A stretch of DNA of 16,189 bases from NCBI GenBank assembly GCA_039815375.1, contig JBCBZJ010000043.1, positions 1 to 16,189 on the forward strand. The letters run 5' to 3'. This document shows, one piece after another, positions 28 to 16,189 of this stretch. The stretch comes from Verrucomicrobiota bacterium (GTDB lineage: Bacteria > Verrucomicrobiota > Verrucomicrobiia > Opitutales > Coraliomargaritaceae). The position numbers and the translations under genes were made by a program. The notes below the pieces were generated by a model. That model was not told where the DNA came from, did not search any database, and saw only the letters and a list, made by a program, of their open reading frames with translations. The stretch's first letter is position 1, and every line of letters starts with the position of its first letter.

Positions 28-408
28 ATGGACGTTGATGGCGTTTACTACTCGCTCGTTGATGTAGGCAGTTCTGCTACAAATATGGGCGATTTAGGTT
101 CTATTCCACTTAAACTTATTCGCGGTAAAGATCACATCCATGTTGACTCGCCTAAGACAACAGTGAAAGCGGGCGACTATGTTCCTGTTACATTTGAAGT
201 ACTGGCGAATAATACCGGTATCGATAGTGAATATAGCTTCGAGCTTGATATTCCAGATGGTTTAGCGCTTCACGAAGATAACGTACTTATCTCGAGCTCA
301 TCAGATATTAATGTTGAAGTTGCTGATGGCAAATTAACTCTAACTGGTACACAGCTTGATACTAGTGATATCGCACCAGATTATATCGTGACAAATAGCA
401 TCACTGAC
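28..408 (+). other. Probable chimeric fragment: internal piece of a large secreted protein resembling the C-terminal region of marine gammaproteobacterial S8 serine peptidases
   Basis: Open frame with no real start (VDVGSSATNMGDLGSIPLKLIRG...KAGDYVPVTFEVLANNTG...IPDGL...DYIVTNSITD). It is more AT-rich than the operon, directly follows the adapter and collides with the 3' end of the minus-strand gene. The family resemblance is from memory, not a search. Confidence 0.5.
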
Positions 409-3267
409 GTCCATTCCATCAACGGATATTAAGATCTGCTGTGTAAGGCCAAAGGCGTTAAGATTTTTGCGACGGTATAAATTGAACTCTACTGTATGCG
501 AGATTTCAGAGCCATTGAGCATTTGCATCTCATAGATGGAGTTCATACGATTTTCGCGAAAATCACCTCCTGCCGCGAATTGTGAGAGGTCATCCACTCC
601 ATTTCCATCCATATCTTCGTCAGGGAGCCCCGGTAGATAGTCAGTCGCATCAGTACTGGCTGAGAAGACCAGATAAGCAAGCTGCTCTGCCCCGTGACTT
701 CGATCACTATTACGAATAATGTCTTCGTCAACAGCCGTTAGTAATCCCTGGTCCGTTAAGTAATTGTCACCGTAAAGTAATGCCCAAGAGCCATCTCGAT
801 TATCCAAGCCTGCTTGTGTTAGGATTACACCGGTGGCATTCTCTACTCCAGTAATCGGATAATCGTAGGGAGGCGAATTATGCATGCCTTCGACAGTTCT
901 ACCCCCAAGCTGAGCAGTATAATGGATCGAACCAGGCAATGTTCCGCTGCCAGCCTCGATAACGACGTAGCCCAAAGTTTCGTCGGCTCGGGCCTGGTTG
1001 GTATCCCCTGCAACGGCTTTTCCCGTCCTAAGTACAGTCGAGGAAGGAGAATCACCACGATTGCTACCTCGTGTCCAAAAATACGAGAAATTCGGATCAT
1101 TGTAAGTCATCACTTGGCCCAATACGACTGGCGTAGTGTATTTGTTGTTGTAAAAACCATCATCCCCGTCCCAGTCATTCCTTCTAAAATAGGTTGAGGT
1201 CGAAAGATACTTTTTGGCTTCCATCTTGATCCCGTGTATGTCCGAAAAATATGTTCCTTCATCGACCACAAAATATTCAAGATCAATCGTACTTACCGGT
1301 TCGTTACTATCGTTTACCGGCTGAGCCAGAATCTCAAAGCTGTTACCGCTGGCATTCCGGATACGAGGAACCATAGGAGGATTGCTACTGGAATAAATAG
1401 GCGTCGCAATTACAACCATATCATTGTAGTTATTTGCCAGTGACACTGTTCTCCAGTTTTGATTGTCAACCTCAGTGACTTTGCCACGCTCCCAAATAAG
1501 CGCTTCGGGAACCTTGATCACATTTAAGGTCAGCGTGCCAACACTGGAAACTTCAAAACCGTCGTCGACGGTGTAAGTAATTGTATCGAGCCCTTCGAAA
1601 CCAGGGTCTGGAGTATAAGTGAATTGCTCGCCAGTCTGGGTCAGAGTGCCGTTCGCTGGTTGTGTGACGATCGTGTATTTGAGATAATCATAGTCTAAAT
1701 CAAAACCTTCGATATCGATGTTGCTCGTTTCATCTTGGAGCACAGTCACAACAGCATCACGAGCCTCAGGTGTCGCATTAACTCGTTTCAGATATCCGAG
1801 TTCCGTGACTGTCTTATAGGCAAGGTACAGAACATACTCCTGTTCTTCAGTCCAACCGTTGTAATGTTCGAGAGGATTTCGGTTTGTCATTACCGTATAT
1901 ATCATCCCAGCCAGCATAGTTTCGCCAAGGGTTGTCAGATGAACATCATAAACTCGCGGCACCAGAATCAATTCAGGTCTTTGCTCCCAGGCACGACCAA
2001 AACCGAGGTAATTGGGTGTCCCCCGGCAATCGACATCGGAATGGGCTGAGGTCGAAACGAATCCCATTTGTGTGCGGATACCAGCGAGGGTTCTTTCCTC
2101 CGAAGAAACCTCACTGCCTCTATCTGTCGTATAGTGCCTTTGTGAAAAAACGAATCTTGTGTCACTCCCTTCATCTGGGTCGAAACCATGTAAGGTGTTC
2201 ATATGAGAGGAGAAGTTGAGGCTGCCATAGGGTCGGCCAAACAAAAAGTCATAGTTACTATCTGTGATCAAAGTCTGGATCGCGTCGACTTCGAGGTTAT
2301 CTGGGAAATACCGGTAGTCGGTATTCCCGTCATCATACTCGTAGCCATCGATGTGAATCCCGAGATCACCATACCCGGTATTTTTCATGATCTTTCTTAG
2401 CTGCCTGGTTGTTCCCTTTTCGGTGCTCGTTCCCATAGAAGCCCAGTTTCTCATATCTGCGAGCAAAAGCGGAACCTCAAAGGGTGTGCAAAAGCTACTG
2501 GTAAATTCGCCCGTGTAGTGAGTCGCAGTCTGAGCTTCATCCCAATTGGAGTAAGCATAATCAATAATCTGAGTCGTTTGCTCTGCCGTGATATCCTCAT
2601 GCGTATAGGTGCTGTTATGCGCATCTTGCTCGAAAAGATGAGTGTAAACCGAAACAGCCATAACATATTCGACCCATTTATTGGGCGACTGGACCGATGA
2701 GGCTGTAGCCGATATTAAAGTATCATTAACAACATCTTCCATCACCAAACCAGCCGGAACGCAGTCGAGTGCCAATGCATCCGTTACCCGGTAAGAAACT
2801 TCTTCGACATAGCTAAGGGATGACGAGAAGGTGCCCGAATCCCAAATCATGGGAACAATGATTTTACTATCACGCTTTGCCGTGTAAGCCTTTATGAGGC
2901 GCACGGTTTCCATGAATAAAGCTGGTTTCCTCTCTATATCGTCTTCTCTTGGAATCAAAATGATGTAGTCACCACTGGCATCAATCGCGTCCAGCATGGG
3001 ATTTTTATCAGCGGCGACAACCCGATCATCGTAGTAGGCCTGAAGGATGTCGTCATCGTCAAAATGAGAGAACTGCAAATTCAGCGAACTCACGTTAGTA
3101 TCTGATTCATAGATACTTTGGAACGTAGCTTGAAACTCAGCCGCCCCGGAACCTAGAAATAAAATTTTACTATCAGCTGGGACAACAGCCCACAAAGGGC
3201 TAGTGAGAAGAAGGCCAGATATTAAACTAATAAATGGCCGAATCTTAAAGAGGATTGGCATTTTCAT
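340..3267 (-). CDS. Large secreted multidomain protein: signal peptide, two SGNH-hydrolase-like modules, Big_9/cadherin-like (tandem-95) domain, three lectin-like beta repeats, C-terminal DxDGNG...YRR...S-D tail. True 3' end probably lost at about 409.
   Basis: 975-aa ORF with an N-terminal hydrophobic signal ending PLWA. NATPEARD...YTIVTQPANGTL...FTYTPDPGFEGLDTITYTVDDG (about 1518-1779) is a typical Big_9-like repeat. Three units end in (E/L)-x-Y-x-V (about 665-1497). The last ~23 codons read through the foreign fragment. Confidence 0.8.
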   Translation of the reverse strand: MKMPILFKIRPFISLISGLLLTSPLWAVVPADSKILFLGSGAAEFQATFQSIYESDTNVSSLNLQFSHFDDDDILQAYYDDRVVAADKNPMLDAIDASGDYIILIPREDDIERKPALFMETVRLIKAYTAKRDSKIIVPMIWDSGTFSSSLSYVEEVSYRVTDALALDCVPAGLVMEDVVNDTLISATASSVQSPNKWVEYVMAVSVYTHLFEQDAHNSTYTHEDITAEQTTQIIDYAYSNWDEAQTATHYTGEFTSSFCTPFEVPLLLADMRNWASMGTSTEKGTTRQLRKIMKNTGYGDLGIHIDGYEYDDGNTDYRYFPDNLEVDAIQTLITDSNYDFLFGRPYGSLNFSSHMNTLHGFDPDEGSDTRFVFSQRHYTTDRGSEVSSEERTLAGIRTQMGFVSTSAHSDVDCRGTPNYLGFGRAWEQRPELILVPRVYDVHLTTLGETMLAGMIYTVMTNRNPLEHYNGWTEEQEYVLYLAYKTVTELGYLKRVNATPEARDAVVTVLQDETSNIDIEGFDLDYDYLKYTIVTQPANGTLTQTGEQFTYTPDPGFEGLDTITYTVDDGFEVSSVGTLTLNVIKVPEALIWERGKVTEVDNQNWRTVSLANNYNDMVVIATPIYSSSNPPMVPRIRNASGNSFEILAQPVNDSNEPVSTIDLEYFVVDEGTYFSDIHGIKMEAKKYLSTSTYFRRNDWDGDDGFYNNKYTTPVVLGQVMTYNDPNFSYFWTRGSNRGDSPSSTVLRTGKAVAGDTNQARADETLGYVVIEAGSGTLPGSIHYTAQLGGRTVEGMHNSPPYDYPITGVENATGVILTQAGLDNRDGSWALLYGDNYLTDQGLLTAVDEDIIRNSDRSHGAEQLAYLVFSASTDATDYLPGLPDEDMDGNGVDDLSQFAAGGDFRENRMNSIYEMQMLNGSEISHTVEFNLYRRKNLNAFGLTQQILISVDGMDVSDAICHDIIWCDITSIKLCTS

Positions 3268-3479: not shown

Positions 3480-4419
3480 GCCTCTTCACGGATTTCGGAC
3501 ACAGGTTGTCTGAAGTCTTCTTTCTTAGCTGCTTCTCTGGCTTGGATCTGAGGCTGCAGGGATTTGGCTGATCGAGGTTATTCAGAGGGTTGAGCAGGTG
3601 CTGGCTGTCGTTTTGCTGTCTGGTTTTCGACATCAATACACCAAAACTATGACAACCAGTATCGTTTACCATACTCAGGGCATCCGTGGATTCCACTATG
3701 AAAAGACCGTTCGCAAGGATCAGACTGAGTATTATCACATCATCTGCACTGCAACCAAGGCGGTTTGCCCCTGCTGTAAGTCCAAGCAGGCAAAATTCGT
3801 TGAGACTGTGCAGCAACGCTTCATCCGAGAGCTGCCTGCCGGCTTAAAAAACGGTTTTCATTGTGCAGATCAAGCGAGTGCGCTGCGAGAGTTGTCACGG
3901 TTTCGCCCGTGAGCGTTTGAGCTTTTGCCCGGCTCCGAACGTGGCTTACACCAAATGGTTGGTGAAGTATGTCCTGGCTCTGAGGCGTGAGATGTCGATC
4001 GCTGCTGTAGCCAAGTTCACCGGTCTACACTGGGAGAGTGTCAAGGAGATCGAGAAGCGTTATCTGGCTAAAAAATACGCCAAAGTCAGCCTGGGTTCGT
4101 TGTGCAGGTTCGGCATCGACGAGGTATATCTCGGTCGTAAGTTCGGCTTCATCACCGTGGTGCGACAAAGCGGAAGCCTCTGCGATCCATTGCCTAAAGC
4201 AAATGGCTAAAATCATATGCAAGCGTATCGAAGGACTCCTCGCCTTCTGGAAACATGACCGTCTCACCAGTGCCAGCCAGGAGCGCTGTAACAACAAAAT
4301 AGGATGGCTCACCAGACAGGCTTATGGATACAGAGATGAAGAGTTCCTAAACCTTAAAATCTACGATCTGCCGAACCTATCTACGCGGAAAGAACTGTGA
4401 CCGAAATCCGTGATGAACT
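3480..4419 (+). mobile_element. Degenerate ISL3-family insertion sequence (about 940 bp)
   Basis: Imperfect terminal inverted repeats: left GCCTCTTCACGGATTTCGGACACAG (3480-3504), right on the reverse strand AGTTCATCACGGATTTCGGTCACAG (4419-4395). They enclose ISL3 transposase fragments. No target-site duplication is visible. Confidence 0.88.
3649..4400 (+). pseudogene. ISL3 transposase pseudogene in three pieces
   Basis: Zinc finger CPCC...RVRCESC, HTH region (MSIAAVAKFTGLHWESVKEIEK), first catalytic motif GIDE, and C-terminal E-x-x-NNKI...RQAYGYRDEEFLNLKI. There is a frameshift at the A6 run 3846-3851 and a large internal deletion at about 4158-4166. Confidence 0.9.
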
Positions 4420-4606: not shown

Positions 4607-5050
4607 TTAGCGTTCCTGCACCTGCGGGATGATCTTACTGGTAAGTGTCAGCTTACCGGAATTGACGCCCTTGCAGGTCAGCATGCGGTCGGTGATTTTT
4701 CTCAGGCGGCGGACGCGGCCCTGGACTAGAACGACCTCCATCACGTTGTCGCCTTCGAGGAGAACGTGCTGACTGCTGATGCACTCGTCAATATGCTCTC
4801 GCTCGATCCGCGCCAGTTTCTCCAGAAGGCCCGCCTTTGACGAGTCGTAGAATAAGGTAATTGTTCCGGCCATTAAGGTCTCGTCGTTTTCCTGCTGATA
4901 CTCGACAAGCTGCTGCTCGATCATTTCAGCGATTGCTTGCGAACGGTTATGAAAACCTCGTCTTTGAATCATCTCGTCCAGCCCCTCGGCCAAACGACGC
5001 GGTAGGGAGACGCTGATGCGGTGCGCTGTATTATTTTTATCCACCTTCAT
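4607..5050 (-). CDS. nikR: NikR-family ribbon-helix-helix transcriptional regulator with a degenerate Ni-binding site
   Basis: N-terminal RHH (RISVSLP...[21 protein letters not shown]) plus NikR C-terminal ACT-like domain (GTITLFYD...SQHVLL...MEVVLVQG...KGV..GKL). ATG at 5050 is preferred over the upstream TTG at 5095, which falls in the operator region. Confidence 0.88.
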
Positions 5051-5076: not shown

Positions 5077-5104
5077 GTAATACTTCCGGCAACAAATTTA
5101 TTAC
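5077..5104. promoter_or_regulatory. Putative operator of the NikR-like regulator: GTAATA-N16-TATTAC
   Basis: Perfect 6-bp inverted repeat with a 16-bp spacer, the same geometry as the E. coli NikR operator GTATGA-N16-TCATAC. It lies between the nikR-like start and the sigma54 promoter. Confidence 0.75.
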
Positions 5105-5214: not shown

Positions 5215-6216
<1,002 letters not shown>

Positions 6217-6337: not shown

Positions 6338-7723
6338 ATGACTAAGAACAAAAAGCCCAAGGCGCAGAGGCATCCTTGGTTTGCGGTCCGGAAGGACCTT
6401 GATGCAAAACGTCGCCTCTTGCTCTCTGTATTTTCCTTCATCATGCCTTTGGCTATCTGGTGCCTGGTGAGCTACACGCCGTTTATCTGGCATCCGGATA
6501 TTAAACTGCAAATCTCTGCCGACAGAAGTGATGTAACAACCGTGTTCACTGCGGGTGACCATCTGAGCAAGACCTATTTCCCGACCTTTGTTGAGGCGAT
6601 CCAGAAAGATAATAACTTGGTTTTGGCGGCTCGTGAAGCTGGCGAGCTGGGTAACGGAGGCTCTCGTGCACGCCGTGCCAACGTTAAGATCATACGGCAA
6701 ATCTCATCGCCTGCTATTGCGAATGGTTGGTTAACTAAAGAAGAGGCAGAGGAAGATGAAGCACTCTACATGATTTGGAAAGGTGTTGCTGAAGGCAGCC
6801 TCGAAGGGAAAAAGGTAAAATTCAGCGAAGAGAACGTTGCGATAGCTCAGCGTAACTGGGCTTTGATGTCGGCCAAGAGCCCAACTTACGATTCCAAGCT
6901 GATGCCGGACCAGCCTCTCCAAAAACTTGTGCCACAGGGACGCTTGGCAAATCCAGTTTATCTGCCCGCGCCGCACGAAGTTGTGGTCAAGGGTCTAGAA
7001 GATTTCACCTTCACCTCCGATGGCGACAAGCCCTCGATGTTTGAACGCTATAAGCATTCGTTGAAAATCGTCTTCATGGGTTTCCTCATGGCGGCACTGG
7101 TTGGCGTTCCTCTAGGCGTGCTCTGTGGCACCTTCGATTTCTTCTCCAAGCTCTTCGAACCATTTATCGACTTTTTCCGTTATATGCCGGCACCCGCCTT
7201 CAGTACTTTGCTGGTCGCAATTTTCGCAGCGCATGACGCGCCAAAGATCGCTTTGGTCTTTGTCGGCACTTTCTTTCAGCTCGTGTTGGTTGTTTCGAAC
7301 ACAACGCGCCAATTGGAGACTTCCCTCCTCGAGGCTGCTCAAACGCTCGGTGCAAAAAACATGACGCTGATTCGCCGCGTTATCATTCCTGGTATCACAC
7401 CGAATCTCTTCAATGACCTACGCATTCTACTCGGCTGGGCTTGGACCTGGCTTGTTATTGCCGAGCTCATCGGGGTGAAAAGCGGTCTGACTGAGTTCCT
7501 CGAAACGCAAGGTCGCTGGCGCAACTTCGATAGTGTGTTCCCTATCATTATCCTGATTGGTGTGACTGGTTTCACGACCGACCAGTTCCTTGCATCGTTG
7601 CGTAAATATCTTTTCCCATGGACACCGGAAGCTTCCGAGAAGAAGCACGGTATCTTTGGACGCTTCGCCTTCTGGCTCCTCGACCGGAAAGTTTATGAAT
7701 CACCTGTCAATGGAAAGGTATAA
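6338..7723 (+). CDS. ABC transporter permease (SsuC/TauC-like) with a large extracytoplasmic insertion
   Basis: [29 protein letters not shown] loop ([10 protein letters not shown]) and [14 protein letters not shown] motifs. A hydrophilic segment of about 150 aa follows the first transmembrane helix. Confidence 0.92.
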
Positions 7724-7725
7724 GT

Positions 7726-8625
7726 ATGAGCGAAGTAATCGAATTACCCAGTTATAAGGAACAGAGTGACGAAGTTCGTGCTCGTTTTACCGAAATCTAC
7801 AAACGTCCGATTAAGCTCGAAGTGAAGGGGGTGAGCAAGAGCTTCACCACGGCGAAGGGCACGGTCGATGTGCTCAGTCCGATCAACTTTAATGTCCATC
7901 GCCGTGAGTTCATCTCGGTTATCGGACCATCGGGCTGTGGAAAGTCCACTCTGATTCGTATGCTTGCGGGTCTCGAAACCACTTCCGGCGGCACTTTCCT
8001 GCTCGATGGCGAAGAAGCCAGTGGTCCGGGCGCGGATCGCGGAATGGTTTTTCAGGGTTACACACTGTTCCCGTGGCTAACGGTTAAAAAGAATGTCATG
8101 TTTGGTCTTGAGGTGAATGGGCGCTCCGGGTCGGCGGTCGAGCAGGAGGCCTTGCAGTGGATTGATCTGGTTGGTCTCTCACATGCGGTCGAGAAATACC
8201 CGAGTCAGCTTTCGGGCGGGATGAAACAGCGCGTGGCTATTGCTCGCTCGCTCGCCAATCAACCGCAGATTCTCTTCATGGATGAGCCTTTCGGTGCGCT
8301 CGATCCGCATACGCGTTGTCAAATGCAGGCACATTTACTGCAGATCTGGAAGAATGTTGATGTAACGATTATGTTTGTAACACATGATCTTGATGAAGCG
8401 ATTTATCTGTCCGACCGAATCCTGGTTCTGAAGGCAAATCCTGGAGAGATTCATGAATTCCTCGAAGTGCCTGTTCCGCGTCCGCGTTCAGATGATCAGT
8501 TGCTCAGTCCAGAGTTTCTTGCAACGAAGCAGCGACTTGAGGAGTTGATTCACCCCAAGAACCATGCGGAAGAGCACCAACTACCCATGGTTCGAATGAC
8601 GAGCACAAGTGACGAAGTTGAGTAG
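7726..8625 (+). CDS. ABC transporter ATP-binding protein (SsuB/TauB-like)
   Basis: Walker [11 protein letters not shown]-loop VFQ, signature LSGGMKQR, Walker [12 protein letters not shown]-loop VTHD. Confidence 0.96.
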
Positions 8626-8627
8626 AT

Positions 8628-9404
8628 ATGCCTGATATCGCACACAGCCAATGGTCGGTCATGACATGGCCGGAAATTCTTGAGGCGATTCGGGGTGGTT
8701 GTGATGCCGTGATGCTGCCGCTTGGAGCTACGGAACAACATGGGCCGCATCTCGGCACGGGCATGGACAGCGTTCTTGCCGAGAAACTCTGTAAAGAGGT
8801 CGGCAAGAAAACGCGCGTGCCTGTCCTGCCGACACTGAGCTATGGATGCTCGATAGGGCATTCACACCGCTGGCCCGGGACGCTTGCATTGAGTCCGAGC
8901 ACCATGATTGCAGTCCTTTGCGATATCGGCGACTGGCTTTATAAGGCAGGTATTCGTCGCTTGTTCTTCGTGAACTGTCATATCGGTAACATCGCTCCGA
9001 TTCGCTGCGCGCTCGATACCTTACGTTGCCGCTATGACGACCTGATGATTGCGTCCTTCAACGATGGAGACATGACACCGGTGATCAAAGCAGCCTTCGA
9101 GACGGATGGTGCCGACTGGCATGCGAATGCTGCAGAAACCAGTCTGATGATGGCGACTGCTCCAGATCTGGTTCGGCCTGATAAAATCGAGGATGCGGAC
9201 GATCCGGACCGCACCGGGGACTGTGTCTTCGCGCACCCAGTCAACCGCACCAGTACCAACGGTGTGACGGGACGCCCAAGCGAAGCATCAGAGTTTGCAG
9301 GTGAGCGCCTCTTTGAGCATCTTGTCTCGGCGCTATGTATTCGAGTTGAGGCTGGTCTTGAAGAAGAGCCACCGTTGAGAAATTCCTATTTTGAACGTAT
9401 CTGA
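8628..9404 (+). CDS. Creatininase-family amidohydrolase (substrate unknown)
   Basis: [33 protein letters not shown] and HANAAETS motifs. The binuclear metal ligands of the creatininase fold (E, H, D, H, E) appear intact. Confidence 0.92.
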
Positions 9405-9416
9405 AATTTGAATACA

Positions 9417-10835
9417 ATGAGGGAATTCTACGAAAAATACAAAACTGCTGCCGGTAATCTCTATACTGAAGAGAGATGGACGGATGAACAGGTCGCCGCA
9501 ATTCAGGCTGATCTTGAGAGTGCAGGGGTGAAGTATTGTGTAGGTAACTATGTGGACATTCATGGAGTGCCTAAAGGTAAGGTGGTGCCGCTGAGCCACT
9601 TCCCTGAATTTGCGCGAGGTTCCGAGCTTTATACGGGCTATGCGCTCGACGGTCTTGGACAGCGTCCGAATGATGACGAAATTGCTTCGAACCCAGACCT
9701 TGGCCTAATTATCCCGCTGCCTTGGAATCCCAGCGTAGCATGGATTCCTGCCGACAATACACTTCATGGGGAGCCCTACGAAGTGAATACCCGGGTGGTC
9801 CTGCAGAAGGTTTTAGAACAGGCGTATACGATGGGTTTCGGCATGAACCTGGGCATCGAGTGTGAGGTTTTCGTCGTTCGCTACACCGAAGACGGCCGAC
9901 TTGAAATACCCAATAGTGACGATAATTTGGAGAAAAGTTGCTATGACTTTAAGCGTTTCATGGATCGTTTCGACTGGCTTGATAAGATGGCGACGGCGAT
10001 CGATGAGCTTGGTTGGGAGCTTTACTCCTTCGATCACGAAGATGCCAATTCACAGTTCGAATTCGATTTCAAATACGCAGACGCCCTTACCATGTGCGAT
10101 CGCTTTACCTTCTTCCGTTACATGGCCAAGCACTATGCTTCGGAGGAAGGCCTGATTGCGACCTTCATGCCAAAGCCTTTTGCTGACAAAACCGGTAGCG
10201 GCGCGCACTTTAACATGTCGCTCTACGACAAGGAGACCGGCGAAAATCTCTTTAAGTGCAACAAGTCAGAGGACTCGCGTGGCTTAGGCTTGAGTGAGCT
10301 GGGCTATCAGTTCAGTGCAGGTATTCTCAAGCACGGTCCTGCACTTTGTGCGGCCTTTGCACCCACCGTGAACAGCTATAAGCGGCTCGTGCGCCGGGGC
10401 CTGATGAGCTACTATTCCTGGGCACCTGTTTTTAACTCCTACGGCAGTAATAACCGCACGAATTCCCTCCGTGTGCCAATGGCAGGTTGCCGAGTCGAGT
10501 CGCGCAATGCTGACGCTTCCTGCAACCCTTACCTTGCTGCTGCTCTCGCACTTGCAGCAGGTCTCGAAGGCATCAAAGAGGAACTTAATCCTGGCGACCC
10601 GCAGGAAGATAATCTCTACGAACTCAGTCCGGCCGAGCTCGCCGAGCGCGGTATTTCCGAACTCCCGCGTTCCCTTGATGAAGCGGTCGAGGCATTTGCC
10701 GCCGATCCATTTATCGAGCAAGTGCTCGGCGAGGAGTTACGAAAGGAATTTATCACTTATAAATCCGAAGAATGGCGGCAATTCCATCAGCGCATCAGCC
10801 AGTGGGAGGTCGATCAATACGCACGTCTTTTCTAA
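9417..10835 (+). CDS. glnT: Type III glutamate-ammonia ligase-like protein (GlnT/GmaS-like gamma-glutamyl-amine ligase)
   Basis: [61 protein letters not shown] and RVESR..D...NPYL. ATG 9417 or TTG 9408 are both possible starts. Confidence 0.85.
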
Positions 10836-10858: not shown

Positions 10859-11611
10859 ATGAATGAAACTATACCCAACCCGCCGCTCGGTTCGAGTGAG
10901 CCCATCTATGAAACGTCGCTACGTGGTGCATCCATGTGGTCGAAGGTCATTGGACGGGGCAAAACTCTCCGAATGACTGACCTCGAAGGTAAAGGAAATG
11001 TGGGCATGCTGCTTTACAATGCCCATGAGCGCTCTGAGCGATATAACATGCCTGATACCCTTAAAGGGCAGCACATTTTCTACCTCCGGTCGCCATACTG
11101 TCTCCACTCCGATATGGGTCGACTCTTCTGCTCGATTACGGGTGACACCCTCGGCTGGCATGATGCGGTTTGCGGTTGCTCTGATGCTGCGCTTGTTGAA
11201 AAAAAGTATGGCATCAGGACCTTTCAGGAGGCCCGCAACGACTATCATCGCGATGGGCAGAATTCGTTCTTGATTGAACTTGCGAAGTGGGGGCTTGGGA
11301 AGCGTGACCTCATGCCCAATATCAACTGGTTCAGCAAAGTTGTCACAGATGAAGAGGGTAAGCTCAGCTACGTTGCCGAAGAGTCGAAACCCGGCGATAC
11401 TGTCGATTTACGTTTTGAAATGGATGCGCTTGTGGTGCTCAACACCTGCCAGCATCCGCTCGATCCGAGTCCTGAATATGACCCGGGCCGAGTGAAACTT
11501 GAAGTATTCAAGAGTGAACCTGCCGGTGAAGACGATCCGTGCCGCAATTCGCGGCCAGAAAACCAACGTGCATTCAACAATACTGAAGATTACAACGCGC
11601 TCCGATTCTGA
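10859..11611 (+). CDS. cgdA: DUF1989 urea-carboxylase-associated protein (UAAP1), carboxyguanidine deiminase subunit A
   Basis: [34 protein letters not shown] and TCQHPLDP motifs. First of a DUF1989 pair ahead of uca. ATG 10859 follows the glnT stop. Confidence 0.9.
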
Positions 11612-11628
11612 CTTTAACTTCTTATACT

Positions 11629-12264
11629 ATGTTTACCGAAAGCACATTGAAACCAGAAGACGCGGTTTACCGCAAAACAGTTCTCGCAGGCGATTACTGG
11701 ATCCACGAAATCAAGAAGGGGCAGACCTTTCGTATCGTGGACGTTGAAGGCAACCAGGCAGCCGATACAATCTTCTATGACGCACAGGATCCGGAAAATC
11801 GATATAGCGCTTCAGATACAGTCCGTCGTCAGGGTGCGCTTTACCTGACGACTGGCTCCGATCTAGTTTCCACGGCTGGCGACGTGCTGATGAGAATCAC
11901 TGCTGATACCTGTGGTCGCCACGACACGCTCGGTGGTGCTTGCTCGCGAGAGAGCAACACCATGCGTTACTCTCCACGAACTGAATATATGCACGCTTGC
12001 CGTGATAGCTTTATCAGAGGCTTGCAGGACTGGGGGCCGAATCTAACTACGCGCGACCTGCCATGTAACATTAACTTCTTCATGAATGTTCCTGTCACCC
12101 CGGAAGGAAAGCTCACTTTCGAGGATGGTATCTCTTCTGCAGGGCTTTATATTGAGATGGTTGCCGAGCGCGACGTAATGTGCCTCATTTCAAACTGCCC
12201 CCAACTGAACAACCCCTGTAACGCTTACAATCCCACTCCTATCGAGACGATTATCTGGGATTAA
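11629..12264 (+). CDS. cgdB: DUF1989 urea-carboxylase-associated protein (UAAP2), carboxyguanidine deiminase subunit B
   Basis: [33 protein letters not shown] and [17 protein letters not shown] motifs. Confidence 0.92.
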
Positions 12265-12366: not shown

Positions 12367-15300
12367 ATGTTTAAAAAAGTATTGATAGCGAATCGCGGTG
12401 AGATTGCCTGCCGCGTTATCCGCACACTTGATCAGCTGAGCGTCGCTTCTGTTGCAGTATATTCTGATGCAGACCGGGACGCGCCACATGTGTCGATGGC
12501 GACGGAAAGCTACCGTATCGGGCCGGCTGCGGTTAGCGAGAGCTACCTCCAAGCCGAGACGATTCTTGAAATTGCCAGATGCTCCGGCGCGGATGCGATT
12601 CATCCTGGCTACGGATTGCTCAGCGAGAACGCCGACTTCGCTAAAGCCTGCGAAGAAGCAGGCGTCACCTTCATTGGCCCGACTCCTGAAAGTATGCTTG
12701 CCTTTGGCCTGAAGCACCGTGCGCGAGCGCTTGCTTCCGAGAATGCAGTGCCGCTTGTTCCAGGAACGGATTTGCTCGTCGACGTCAAGGCTGCGCAAGA
12801 GGCGGCTGACGAAATCGCTTACCCGGTCATGCTCAAAAGCACGGCTGGCGGTGGTGGCATCGGAATGCAAATCTGTTATTCGGAAGCAGAGCTACTTGAT
12901 GCTTACGACCGTGTTGAGCGCTTGAGCCAAAGCCACTTTGGTCAGGGTGGTATCTTTCTGGAAAAGTTCGTTGTCCATGCGCGCCATCTGGAGGTCCAGG
13001 TCTTTGGCGATGGGCAGGGCCAGGTTCTTTCGCTTGGCGTTCGTGATTGCTCCACTCAGCGGCGAAACCAGAAAGTCATTGAAGAAACGCCACCTGCAAA
13101 TGTATCCGAAAATGTGATACAAGGTCTACAGGAAGCTGCGCTGCGACTTTGCGAGTCAGTTAAATACCGTTCTGTGGGCACGGTTGAGTTCATTTACGAT
13201 AATGACACGCAGGAATACTATTTTCTGGAGGTGAATACCCGCCTTCAGGTGGAGCATGGCGTGACTGAGTTGGTCACGAATGTTGACCTCGTCAGTTGGA
13301 TGGTGCAGCTCGCTGCCGGAGATATGACGATTTCGGCTGATCCAAAAATTGTCCCGCAGCATGGGCATGCGATTCAGTCGCGACTCTATGCCGAGAACCC
13401 GCGTAAAGATTTCCAGCCCTCGAGCGGTTTGCTGACTCAGGTGAGTTTCCCCGAAGGTGTGCGTTGCGACCATTGGGTGAACTCCGGCACTGAAGTCAGC
13501 CCTTACTACGACCCGCTACTTGGAAAGCTGCAGGTCTATGCCGAGACGCGTGAAGGTGCCGTTGCAGCGATGTATGGAGCTCTGACAAAAACGCGTCTGG
13601 AAGGCATTGAAACGAATCTCGACTACCTGCGCACGGTCGTTCTTTCGGAGGTATTTCGCTCCGGTAATATGATGACGAAGAGCCTGTCGGAACACGATTA
13701 CCAGCCGAAGACTTTTGAAGTGCTGCGCTCCGGCACGATAACCACGGTGCAGGACTATCCCGGTCGAGTCGGTTATTGGGAAGTCGGCGTGCCTCCGTCC
13801 GGCCCGATGGACTCTCTGGCCTTTCGTTTGGGTAATCGACTGCTTGCGAACCCGCAGGATGCAGCGGGTCTTGAAATCACCGCGACCGGACCGAAGCTTG
13901 AATTCCACACCACTGTTACTGCGATCCTCACCGGTGCCGAAATGGACACGACGCTCGACGGAGAGCCAGTTGATTTCTACCGTCCTTTTGAAATTGAGGC
14001 AGGTGCCACGCTCGACATCGGCAAGTTAACGGGGCTAGGTGTGCGTAGTTACCTGCTGATACGAGGAGGGATCGATGTCCCGCTCTATTTGGGTAGCCGT
14101 TCAACTTTTACCCTCGGTCAGTTCGGCGGGCACGGAGGACGTGGTCTGCGCCTTGGGGACATTCTCCATGTTGGTGGTTCCGAGCCAGCCCAACCGTCGG
14201 CTCCAGACTATGCGGCATCCTCAGAAGGCACTCTATTTGCTAGCGATCTTTTCGACCTTCCAAAGGACCAGCAGCCCGAGTTAACTCACACGTGGGACAT
14301 TGCGGTTCTCTATGGGCCGCATGGTGCGCCGGACTTTTTCAAGCCGTCCGATATCGAGATGTTCTTCGAGACGGAGTGGGAGGTGCATTACAATTCGGCC
14401 CCGACGGGTGTCCGCCTTATCGGTCCAAAGCCGGAATGGGCGCGTCCCGATGGTGGAGAGGCTGGCCTGCATCCGTCCAATATTCACGATAATGCCTATG
14501 CGATTGGGGCCATTGATTTTACTGGAGACATGCCGGTGATTCTTGGTCCCGATGGGCCGAGTCTGGGCGGTTTTGTTTGTCCTGCCACGATTATTCAGAG
14601 TGAGCTCTGGAAAATGGGGCAACTCAAGCCGGGGGATAAGGTGCGGTTCCGCTGCGTTTCCCGTGAACAGGCGGAGAGCCTTCGGGGCCGTCAGGAGGAG
14701 AGTATCGCCACTCTCAAAGCAGACTTCGAGGTGCCGAGTGATGTGCGCCTTCCGGAGCCGGACGAAATGATTCTCGTCGATGAAGGGGAGGGTGACGCGC
14801 GACTTGTCATCCGTCAGGCCGGGGATGCTTATGTGCTCGCTGAGATCGGTCCAATGGCGCTCGACTTTAAACTGCGCTTCCACGTGCACGTTCTGTATCA
14901 GGCTTTGAAGGAGCAAAGTTTTGAGCCGGTCGAAGACTTGACGCCCGGCATTCGCTCGCTGCAGGTGCATTTTGACTCGAGGAAGGTTAGTGCGGAGTCG
15001 GTGGCTGTATGGATTCAGCTAGTGAATCAGCAGTTGCCGCCGCTGGAAGATATCACGGTGCCTTCACGCATCGTGCACTTGCCGCTTTCCTGGGACGACC
15101 CCTCGACACAGCTTGCAACCGAGAAATACATGCAGTCGGTTCGTCCTGATGCGCCATGGTGTCCGGACAATATCGAATTTATCCGACGAATTAATGGTCT
15201 CGAAAGACGCGCAGACGTTTACGATATCGTCTTCAATGCGAGCTACGTTGTGCTGGGTCTTGGGGATGTTTATCTTGGTGCCCCTGTTGCGACTCCGCTG

Positions 15301-16017
15301 GACCCGCGTCACCGCCTCGTCACGACGAAGTATAATCCGGCCCGAACATGGACGCCGGAAAATGCTGTTGGTATTGGTGGTGCCTACATGTGTATTTATG
15401 GCATGGAGGGCCCGGGAGGTTATCAGTTTGTGGGGCGCACGATCCAGATGTGGAATCGCTACAATGAAACCGAATCTTTTGAATCCGGTAAGCCTTGGCT
15501 ACTGCGTTTCTTCGACCAGATTCGCTACTATCCGGTAAAGGCAGAGGAGCTTGAAGCACTTCGCCACGACTTCCCACAGGGTCGCTACAATCCGAAGATC
15601 GAGGAAACCTCATTCAGTCTAGAAGAGTATGAGCAGTTTCTCTTTGAGAACATTGATTCGATTCAAGCTTTTAAGCAGCGGCAGCAGTCTTCCTTCGATG
15701 CCGAGCGTCAGCGTTGGGAAGAAGCCGGGCTAGCAACCTACGTCGAGGAAGAGGGCGGTGCGGTGACCGAAGGCGCTGAAGTGCTTCCTGATGATGTTGA
15801 GCCTGTCGAAAGCCCCGTTGCGGGAAGCGTCTGGAAGATTGTGCAGGGTGAGGAGGGTAGCTCGGTCGAAGCGGGTAATACGCTGGCCGTATTGGAATCA
15901 ATGAAGATGGAAATCAAGGTGGAGGCACCTATATCCGGCATGTTGCATCGTTGCCTTTGTAAGGAGGGCCAGGCGATTTCGCCCGGGCAGATTCTGTTTG
16001 GAATTAAAGAAAGTTAA
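12367..16017 (+). CDS. uca: Urea carboxylase family enzyme, guanidine carboxylase type
   Basis: Biotin carboxylase ([33 protein letters not shown]), carboxyltransferase domains ([52 protein letters not shown]) and biotin carrier ESMKME (Lys codon 15904-15906). 1216 aa. Confidence 0.96.
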
Positions 16018-16024
16018 TCTGCAA

Positions 16025-16189
16025 ATGACACAGATGAGCGTAAATTTATCGATTGAGAGTTTAAAGAAAGCCTACGGCGAGGGGACATGCGCTCCGCGTC
16101 AGTTGATTGCTGAACTGCTTGAGCGTATCGACTCAGTCGATAATCCTGATGTTTGGATTTATCGCCTGAGTGTGGAAGAGCTGGAGCCA
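16025..16189 (+). CDS. atzF: Allophanate hydrolase, N-terminal 55 codons (runs off the window)
   Basis: Open frame MTQMSVNLSIESLKKAYGEGTCAPRQLIAELLERIDSVDNPDVWIYRLSVEELEP starting 7 nt after the uca stop. It resembles AtzF/amidase N-termini and sits in the expected position. Catalytic motifs lie outside the window. Confidence 0.78.
   Translation, partial: MTQMSVNLSIESLKKAYGEGTCAPRQLIAELLERIDSVDNPDVWIYRLSVEELEP

Follow-up and report, generated by a model that had tools for sequence, protein, structure and literature searches.

The 16,189-nucleotide stretch of Verrucomicrobiota DNA analyzed here, referred to below as the window, encodes a NikR-fold protein that is probably a nickel-independent repressor of the divergent guanidine uptake and carboxylase operon, from which guanidine would release it. 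The clade to which this protein belongs has lost the nickel site and retains the RHH strand and a predicted 28-bp operator, which co-occurs with the regulator gene.

The regulator and its neighborhood

The features on which the analysis is based are the following (window coordinates, strand):

4607-5050, minus: NikR-fold regulator, 147 aa, ATG at 5050, with RHH_1 and NikR_C domains (Pfam)
4610-4639, minus: C-terminal tail, residues 138-147, clade-typical
4736-4801, minus: former nickel-site segment, with Arg84 (His76), His95 (His87), Leu97 (His89), Val103 (Cys95) and Glu105 (Glu97)
5006-5020, minus: RHH recognition strand RISVS, residues 11-15
5077-5104, no strand: predicted operator, perfect 6-16-6 dyad GTAATA-N16-TATTAC, 28 bp, located 27 bp upstream of the regulator start codon
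5127-5142, plus: sigma-54-type -24/-12 promoter element, 22 bp from the operator, directed at the transporter operon
5215-6216, plus: ABC substrate-binding protein, NMT1-like
6338-7723, plus: ABC permease
7726-8625, plus: ABC ATPase
8628-9404, plus: creatininase-family amidohydrolase, below the creatininase equivalog cut-off
9408-10835, plus: type III glutamine-synthetase-like ligase, best solved relative glutamate-methylamine ligase 9qur
10859-11611, plus: CgdA (UAAP1), above the TIGR03425 cut-off
11629-12264, plus: CgdB (UAAP2), above the TIGR03424 cut-off
12367-16017, plus: urea-carboxylase-family enzyme of the guanidine carboxylase type
16025-16189, plus: allophanate hydrolase (atzF), start only (start at 16025 or 16034); it continues on contig C26, which overlaps the window end

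The regulator is composed of an N-terminal RHH domain (RHH_1) and a C-terminal ACT-like NikR_C domain, an assignment from Pfam with which a PDB sequence search agrees. Its AlphaFold2 monomer (pLDDT 87.5) matched NikR structures in Foldseek, the ACT-like domain superimposed on several NikR C-terminal domains with an rmsd of 0.9-1.9 Å, and the matches in the ESM Atlas were NikR-named clusters only. In a tblastn search of the genome, it was the sole NikR-like gene. Since the protein passes the cut-off of one NCBIfam NikR model (PRK04460, 114.5 vs 105), though it lies under that of four others, annotation pipelines label it nickel-responsive. No sigma-70 promoter was found for the gene. Downstream of it lies a frameshifted remnant of an ISL3-family transposase (3598-4400), and positions 340-3267 of the minus strand encode a 975-aa protein with a signal-peptide-like start and a single Big_9/cadherin-like domain, the remainder having no Pfam match.

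Loss of the nickel site throughout a clade

The ligands of NikR are numbered His76, His87, His89 and Cys95. The nickel site that they form has His3Cys geometry (PMC11672702, PMC2875016). Residue equivalences were taken from ungapped phmmer alignments to the NikR proteins of E. coli (1q5v) and P. horikoshii (2bj1), and the codons concerned specify Arg (4799-4801), His (4766-4768), Leu (4760-4762), Val (4742-4744) and Glu (4736-4738). Both codons and alignments agree with the sequence-only reading, in which His76 had been replaced by Arg, His89 by Leu and Cys95 by Val, with His87 and Glu97 kept; one of the four ligands of the square-planar site (His76', His87, His89, Cys95) is thus retained. The window regulator also lacks the external-site His pair and the tail His.

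Among the best 120 of 541 homologs, none had His at the His89 column and none had Cys at the Cys95 column; one ligand was retained in 98 of them, two in 12, and none in 10. Mean conservation was 0.86 in the beta2-beta3 segment, which holds the ligand columns, vs 0.77 in the DNA-binding domain. This conservation across homologs rules out a sequencing error or the decay of a single gene.

A profile search of 50%-identity representatives, of which the best 150 of 2196 were used, yielded two sets of proteins: canonical ones with His-His-His-Cys and a group without that set. In a first, quick tree, built from 130 of 151 rows after 21 gappy or incomplete ones had been dropped, 63 rows fell on one branch (SH-aLRT 94). 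A second tree of 87 chosen rows (123 columns, computed without the tail, the His-His loop and the ligand columns; rooted at the midpoint, with many of its inner forks open) contained a sub-clade of 53 rows with a support of 99/95. Cys was missing in all 53 and the Pro tail was present in 52, while all 33 canonical rows lay outside. At the first split within the clade stand Opitutales proteins with three His and Tyr for Cys, which already adjoin cgdA. If canonical NikR is the outgroup, loss of the Cys and gain of the tail would have come first, and the His losses later and repeatedly. The regulator appears to have been derived once from NikR, as part of a NikR sub-clade and not by single-gene decay. 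Separate losses of nickel ligands, without the Pro tail, were also seen within the canonical NikR branch (P0222, P0226, P0232, P0243, P0250, P0256 and P0266).

Neither the 58 representatives of the clade nor the regulators of the 80 genome loci (best 80 of 593) had the Cys in a single case. None of the four ligands was left in 27 representatives, one in 21, two in nine and three in one; the external-site His pair was missing as well, and no alternative metal-ligand set was conserved among the 58. The His and Cys of the segment EHIDEC had been brought up as alternative nickel ligands, an idea that did not survive comparison: Cys stands at its column in 3% of the 58 representatives, and in most of the clade position 86 is His, Tyr or Phe and position 90 is Val or Ile, so a His86/Cys90 nickel site was rejected.

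The clade is instead marked by Glu89 (79% of the 58 representatives), Gln110 (89%) and Pro142-Pro143 in the tail, the Pro-Pro being present in 81-82% of the 58 and absent from about 93% of 59 canonical NikRs; the tail of the window regulator itself has Pro-Gln in place of Pro-Pro and Gln where His is usual. Candidate pocket residues comprise Arg84 (55%) and His95 (43%) in addition to Glu89 and Gln110; that none of them is invariant counts against the reading of a guanidine-released repressor. A restored ACT 'PG' ligand loop was discarded as a clade feature (Pro73 in 24% and Gly74 in 32% of the 58).

Three-His proteins do occur among the early-branching and some proteobacterial members (HHH-Y in the Opitutales loci L088-L093, HHH-T in 36 of the best 80 of 455 metagenome loci), and these, together with the PRK04460 score (114.5 vs 105) and the presence of a urease in the host, would fit a regulator that senses nickel or another metal via a rearranged site and turns the ATP-costly route off when nickel enzymes can work. 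We consider such sensing very unlikely, given (i) the single ligand left in the window regulator, which has neither the external-site His pair nor the tail His, (ii) the 27 of 58 representatives with none of the four ligands, (iii) a urease locus without an operator, and (iv) a substrate signature that points to guanidine, on which urease does not act.

The operon for guanidine use

The carboxylase has Asp where the urea carboxylase of K. lactis has Asn, in a column that we take to be the specificity position meant by the following rule. Asp rather than Asn characterizes guanidine carboxylases (PMC12186494), and it was found at 87 of 87 carboxylase motifs of the compared loci and at 19 of 20 in metagenome loci (best 80 of 455). 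In the binding protein, residues Trp38, Trp41, Asp112, Trp182 and Asp211 show a spacing within two residues of that of the docked guanidinium site described for GimA (PMC12704784), a comparison of residue spacing with the published description and not a sequence alignment. The genome also has a urease with a urea-type transporter, at which no operator was found (best score nearby, 0.2 bits). The Asp-type carboxylase, the site of the binding protein and the lack of a urease operator led us to assign the operon to guanidine and not to the role of a urease stand-in; the earlier idea of a nickel-independent alternative to urease is contradicted by the carboxylase type and by the urease locus. A urease-sparing switch is ruled out by the same absence of an operator. 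Nor does the type of binding protein imply a different substrate, as each of the two types is seen with the operator as well as with the riboswitch, and the Trp/Asp residues are common to them. In L105 (1655-1953), a match to the 5'-ureB RNA family suggests that urease genes adjoin the guanidine operon there.

Among the best 80 of 593 regulator loci, nearly all of them from Verrucomicrobiota, cgdA was present in 70 and the carboxylase in 69. With the tree support of 99/95, these counts bear out the proposal that ligand-less members would form a clade tied to cgdAB/uca. The clade adjoins cgdAB and an Asp-type carboxylase in both Verrucomicrobiota and Pseudomonadota, and the link between the regulator and cgdA also exists in named records of Novosphingobium, Sphingobium, Asticcacaulis and Acinetobacter. 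At the genome level, cgdA was found in 29 of 301 Verrucomicrobiota genomes, 23 of which had a NikR_C match, within 10 kb of cgdA in 22. In 401 Pseudomonadota genomes, five clade-level matches stood above a clear score gap, all of them among the 40 cgdA-positive genomes. In a distant subgroup known from metagenome loci (best 80 of 455, many on short contigs), 76 of 80 loci adjoin pathway, transporter or accessory genes, and 54 adjoin cgdAB, uca or atzF.

The creatininase-like and ligase genes (8628-10835) may provide an accessory step, so far undescribed, in the use of guanidine or methylguanidine. They accompany the transporter in 35-37 of the best 80 of 593 genome loci, some of which are incomplete, and in many metagenome loci. 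Several regulator-linked clusters (L028, L032, L034, L039, L040, L045 and others) are extended by genes for a Rieske oxygenase (21 loci), a TIM-barrel isomerase-like protein (18), an FGE-sulfatase-like protein (17), a PuuE-like deacetylase (12) and a short-chain dehydrogenase (10), as well as by a second ABC system and an additional copy of the ligase; they possibly provide a route from a larger nitrogen-rich compound. In Acinetobacter sp. NCu2D-2 (L085:12320-16466), the operator heads ABC genes that are followed by genes for a 2OG-Fe(II) oxygenase, a hypothetical protein and an SMR exporter, a set resembling the methylguanidine genes mgdH/mgdL.

A conserved predicted operator

The dyad of the window is weak by itself, with 0.24 expected by chance at two mismatches. 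In an unguided dyad count over 86 upstream regions, however, three hexamers with a spacer of 16 ranked top, and the operator pattern written from these three was found with that spacer in 60 of 85 upstream regions. Each of the other spacers between 12 and 20 gave 0-4 matches, and none of 84 downstream controls had the pattern. When scored with a leave-one-out matrix, 78 of 85 upstream regions reached p<=0.01 relative to base shuffles. When the matrix was built without the window, the window operator was the top site in the 3.56-Mb genome (20.8 bits, the next site scoring 14.5), and the predicted regulon there is a single strong site, at the guanidine operon.

The operator also follows the regulator: sites were present at 13 of 14 regulator-bearing cgdA loci and at 0 of 6 regulator-less ones, and riboswitch-led loci gave one marginal match in 35. 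The same matrix matches GTATGA-N16-TCATAC before two of six canonical nikR genes. The recognition strand RISVS, which the sequence-only reading had described as intact, is kept by relatives, R11 and S15 being found in 117 of the best 120 of 541 homologs, with the other three rows incomplete. DNA-binding function looks intact, judging from this strand and the conserved predicted operator. Most of L088-L093 (Opitutales) have a variant operator, whose half-sites are two copies of GTGTTAC in the same orientation at a distance of 21 bp.

Operator placement at sigma-54 promoters

The genome encodes rpoN, and operator sites lie at a sigma-54 element in 89 of 140 cases, vs 15 of 535 control positions. 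Within these 140 sites, 43 are placed over the start site, 27 abut the -24 box (0-6 bp) and 19 lie 21-22 bp upstream of it; related loci are not independent, but Opitutales, Acinetobacter and the metagenome subgroup are all represented in the start-site class. Placement over the start site, the commonest, fits the geometry of a repressor. The window operator belongs to the 21-22 bp class, upstream of the -24 box and not over it, which makes repression less obvious here.

Positions just upstream of the -24 box are where bending proteins act. As 46 of the 140 sites, including that of the window, are so placed (0-6 or 21-22 bp), the regulator could act at sigma-54 promoters without any ligand, by bending DNA or by damping, and possibly as a co-activator. 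We give this the least credence of the readings considered, because the 43 sites over the start site fit repression only and the ACT-like domain is strongly constrained in the region of the former site. A helical phasing between operator and sigma-54 box was seen and discounted, as each spacing class is largely one lineage, and a simple pattern search found no NtrC-like dyad near the window promoter.

Exchange with guanidine riboswitches

The window gave no match to any Rfam family, hence no riboswitch at the operon head, and guanidine-I was not found in its genome, also when a profile of our own was used. None was found in the 29 cgdA-positive Verrucomicrobiota genomes either, with up to 91 candidates scored per genome. 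In the Pseudomonadota, guanidine-I was present in 35 of the 40 cgdA-positive genomes, and in four of the five others the regulator was linked to cgdA (Fisher p 5e-5, a value overstated by kinship). Neither control was found in six of the 29 Verrucomicrobiota genomes and in one of the 40 Pseudomonadota genomes. Loci L098-L103 and L154 have cgdA operons in which no regulator, operator or riboswitch was found, and the six Verrucomicrobiota loci among them carry three DUF1989 genes rather than two. There may thus be yet another kind of control for cgdA operons, besides regulator and riboswitch.

The 124 heads of transporter operons, which include a few loci counted twice, carried the operator in 62 cases, a riboswitch in 26, both in none and neither in 29, seven being too short. 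In L124, the gene order of the window from transporter to cgdB stands under two guanidine-I riboswitches, without the regulator. L152 and L153 have riboswitches on both divergent arms; in the same layout, the transporter arm carries the operator in L184, L189 and L204. Guanidine-II riboswitches within operator-led operons (L155, L160, L210, L224) tie these operons to guanidine; they are also known within guanidine-I-led operons (PMC12508155, PMC12186494).

The exchange is not strict. In Acinetobacter (L083, L159), the operator, a sigma-54 box or spacer, and a guanidine-I riboswitch stand in tandem before cgdA, and a guanidine-I riboswitch was found near the regulator in seven of 80 metagenome loci (best 80 of 455). 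These co-occurring loci rule out a strict exclusion of regulator and riboswitch, which holds only at the heads of transporter operons. In L059 (G301), the regulator adjoins an operator-led ABC-atzF-uca unit, and a guanidine-I riboswitch precedes cgdAB at another place in that genome. Near the regulator in three further loci (L201:7430, L211:6282, L214:10812), a guanidine-I-like riboswitch lies upstream of an apparent gene for a TonB-dependent receptor; in L081 and L082, a TonB receptor is divergent from the operon.

The same repressor and operator might respond to a pathway intermediate (carboxyguanidine, allophanate) or to a substituted guanidine on which the products of the creatininase-like and methylamine-ligase-like genes would act, a choice of inducer that strikes us as rather unlikely. 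An intermediate would suit the Acinetobacter tandems, where the regulator is co-transcribed with atzF, although tandem guanidine controls are known from the two riboswitches of V. boliviensis (PMC12508155). For either kind of inducer, one may point to L184, L189 and L204, in which the operator heads a unit of transporter, creatininase, ligase and regulator, cgdAB-uca having its own riboswitch, and to the many metagenome loci that have this unit without adjoining cgdAB; in L124, however, the transporter-creatininase-ligase unit is preceded by a guanidine-I riboswitch. The kinship of the ligase with glutamate-methylamine ligase, its best solved relative, is a further point in favor, but the accessory genes occur in 35-37 of 80 loci vs 69-70 for the cgdAB-uca core (best 80 of 593, some incomplete).

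In a further alternative, the signal would be general nitrogen status, sensed as glutamine, as 2-oxoglutarate, as ammonium bound at the former K+ site or through a PII-type partner, with repression at nitrogen excess. ACT-like domains often bind amino acids, as is textbook knowledge, and where regulator and riboswitch occur together, they would on this view share the work. Residues 38, 41, 42 and 45, which we take to be linked to the K+ site of NikR, are changed in the clade. With these changes, the domain-interface cation site of NikR (PMC2875016) appears remodelled. A general nitrogen signal would, however, hardly predict a regulon of one site, with none at the urease/urea-transport locus, or the near-exclusion with guanidine-I at transporter heads, and sigma-54 promoters already offer a nitrogen input; we therefore rate this alternative as decidedly unlikely.

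Proposed mechanism

For the guanidine-released repressor, we propose that a tetramer contacts the two quasi-palindromic half-sites, which are spaced by 21 bp, in the manner of NikR but without metal. In most lineages, it would repress by covering the start site; in the window, it probably blocks the contact between an upstream activator and the sigma-54 polymerase and would also repress its own divergent gene. Guanidinium would bind the remodelled ACT-like domain, with Glu89, Glu99, Glu105, Gln110 and the new tail as candidates, and cause release from DNA. In lineages with Arg84, it may displace the arginine that fills the old nickel position. The logic of NikR would thereby be inverted from co-repression to induction, and with sigma-54 as the input for nitrogen limitation, expression would need both nitrogen starvation and guanidine. 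Repression, tetramer, ligand and pocket are what we infer; the site, its placement and its co-occurrence with the gene are seen in the sequences themselves.

In H. pylori, NikR without its nickel ligands keeps the interface, but DNA binding is abolished (PMC2875016). The clade must therefore have altered its resting state by compensating changes, for which the tail and residues 38-45 are candidates.

Relation to known systems

With NikR (E. coli 1q5v/2hza/2hzv, P. horikoshii 2bj1/2bj3, H. pylori 2ca9/6mrj), the regulator shares the RHH and ACT-like fold, the recognition strand, the 6-16-6 operator geometry, as predicted here, and probable autoregulation. The clade differs from it in lacking the His3Cys site and the external-site His pair, in its added Pro-Pro tail, and in its targets, which are guanidine genes at sigma-54 promoters and not nickel uptake or nickel enzymes. 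As a NikR-derived protein that appears NikR-like on DNA but has lost the nickel site, it should not be filed as a nickel-responsive NikR. According to a 2024 review, NikR proteins sense nickel only (PMC11672702), a statement that could be tested with the protein, operator and promoter of this clade, for which a laboratory host also exists.

The guanidine-I riboswitch controls the same target operon (gca, cgdAB, atzF and the ABC importer) from the same place at the operon head, and both controls are paired with an internal guanidine-II riboswitch in several loci. They differ in that an RNA aptamer acts on termination, whereas the protein, whose guanidine binding is presumed, would act at initiation via a DNA operator. 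We see roughly even prospects that the regulator is the first protein transcription regulator responding to guanidinium, that is, a nickel co-repressor rebuilt stepwise and interchangeable with guanidine-I at the same promoter. As a candidate for such a switch, it can be put to the test. If true, this would (i) explain the control of guanidine use in Verrucomicrobiota without guanidine-I (0 of 29 cgdA-positive genomes), (ii) put right a 'nickel-responsive' label on account of which one such operon has already been interpreted in terms of nickel, (iii) add an example of a metal sensor that became a metabolite sensor, its logic inverted, and (iv) possibly yield a protein guanidine biosensor.

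The operon maps of Nelson 2017, Schneider 2020 and Sinn 2021 may include the regulator gene. Our literature search, which covered mainly open-access papers, found no description of the clade, its operator or a guanidine-binding transcription factor. A NikR tree is given as Additional file 19 of PMC2667541, and further related papers are PMC12623156, PMC12153308 and PMC10927577. A closely related case is CCNA_01902 of C. crescentus, annotated as 'nickel-responsive regulator NikR', which heads the urea carboxylase/allophanate hydrolase operon CCNA_01902-06 (PMC8552747 Table S1) and has, by annotation, the same gene context; that operon was read as possibly nickel-regulated (PMC8552747). From this context and the Caulobacteraceae relative L084, CCNA_01902 would belong to the clade, the comparison being by annotation only. 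The control genome of C. vibrioides gave matches to NikR_C and CgdA and none to guanidine-I. The main text of a preprint on Caulobacter NtrC makes no mention of the CCNA_01902-06 operon. Finally, a MucR-independent hypomethylated GANTC at position 2,044,585 of C. crescentus is assigned to CCNA_01902 (PMC5172544 Table 1), and it may mark an occupied operator.
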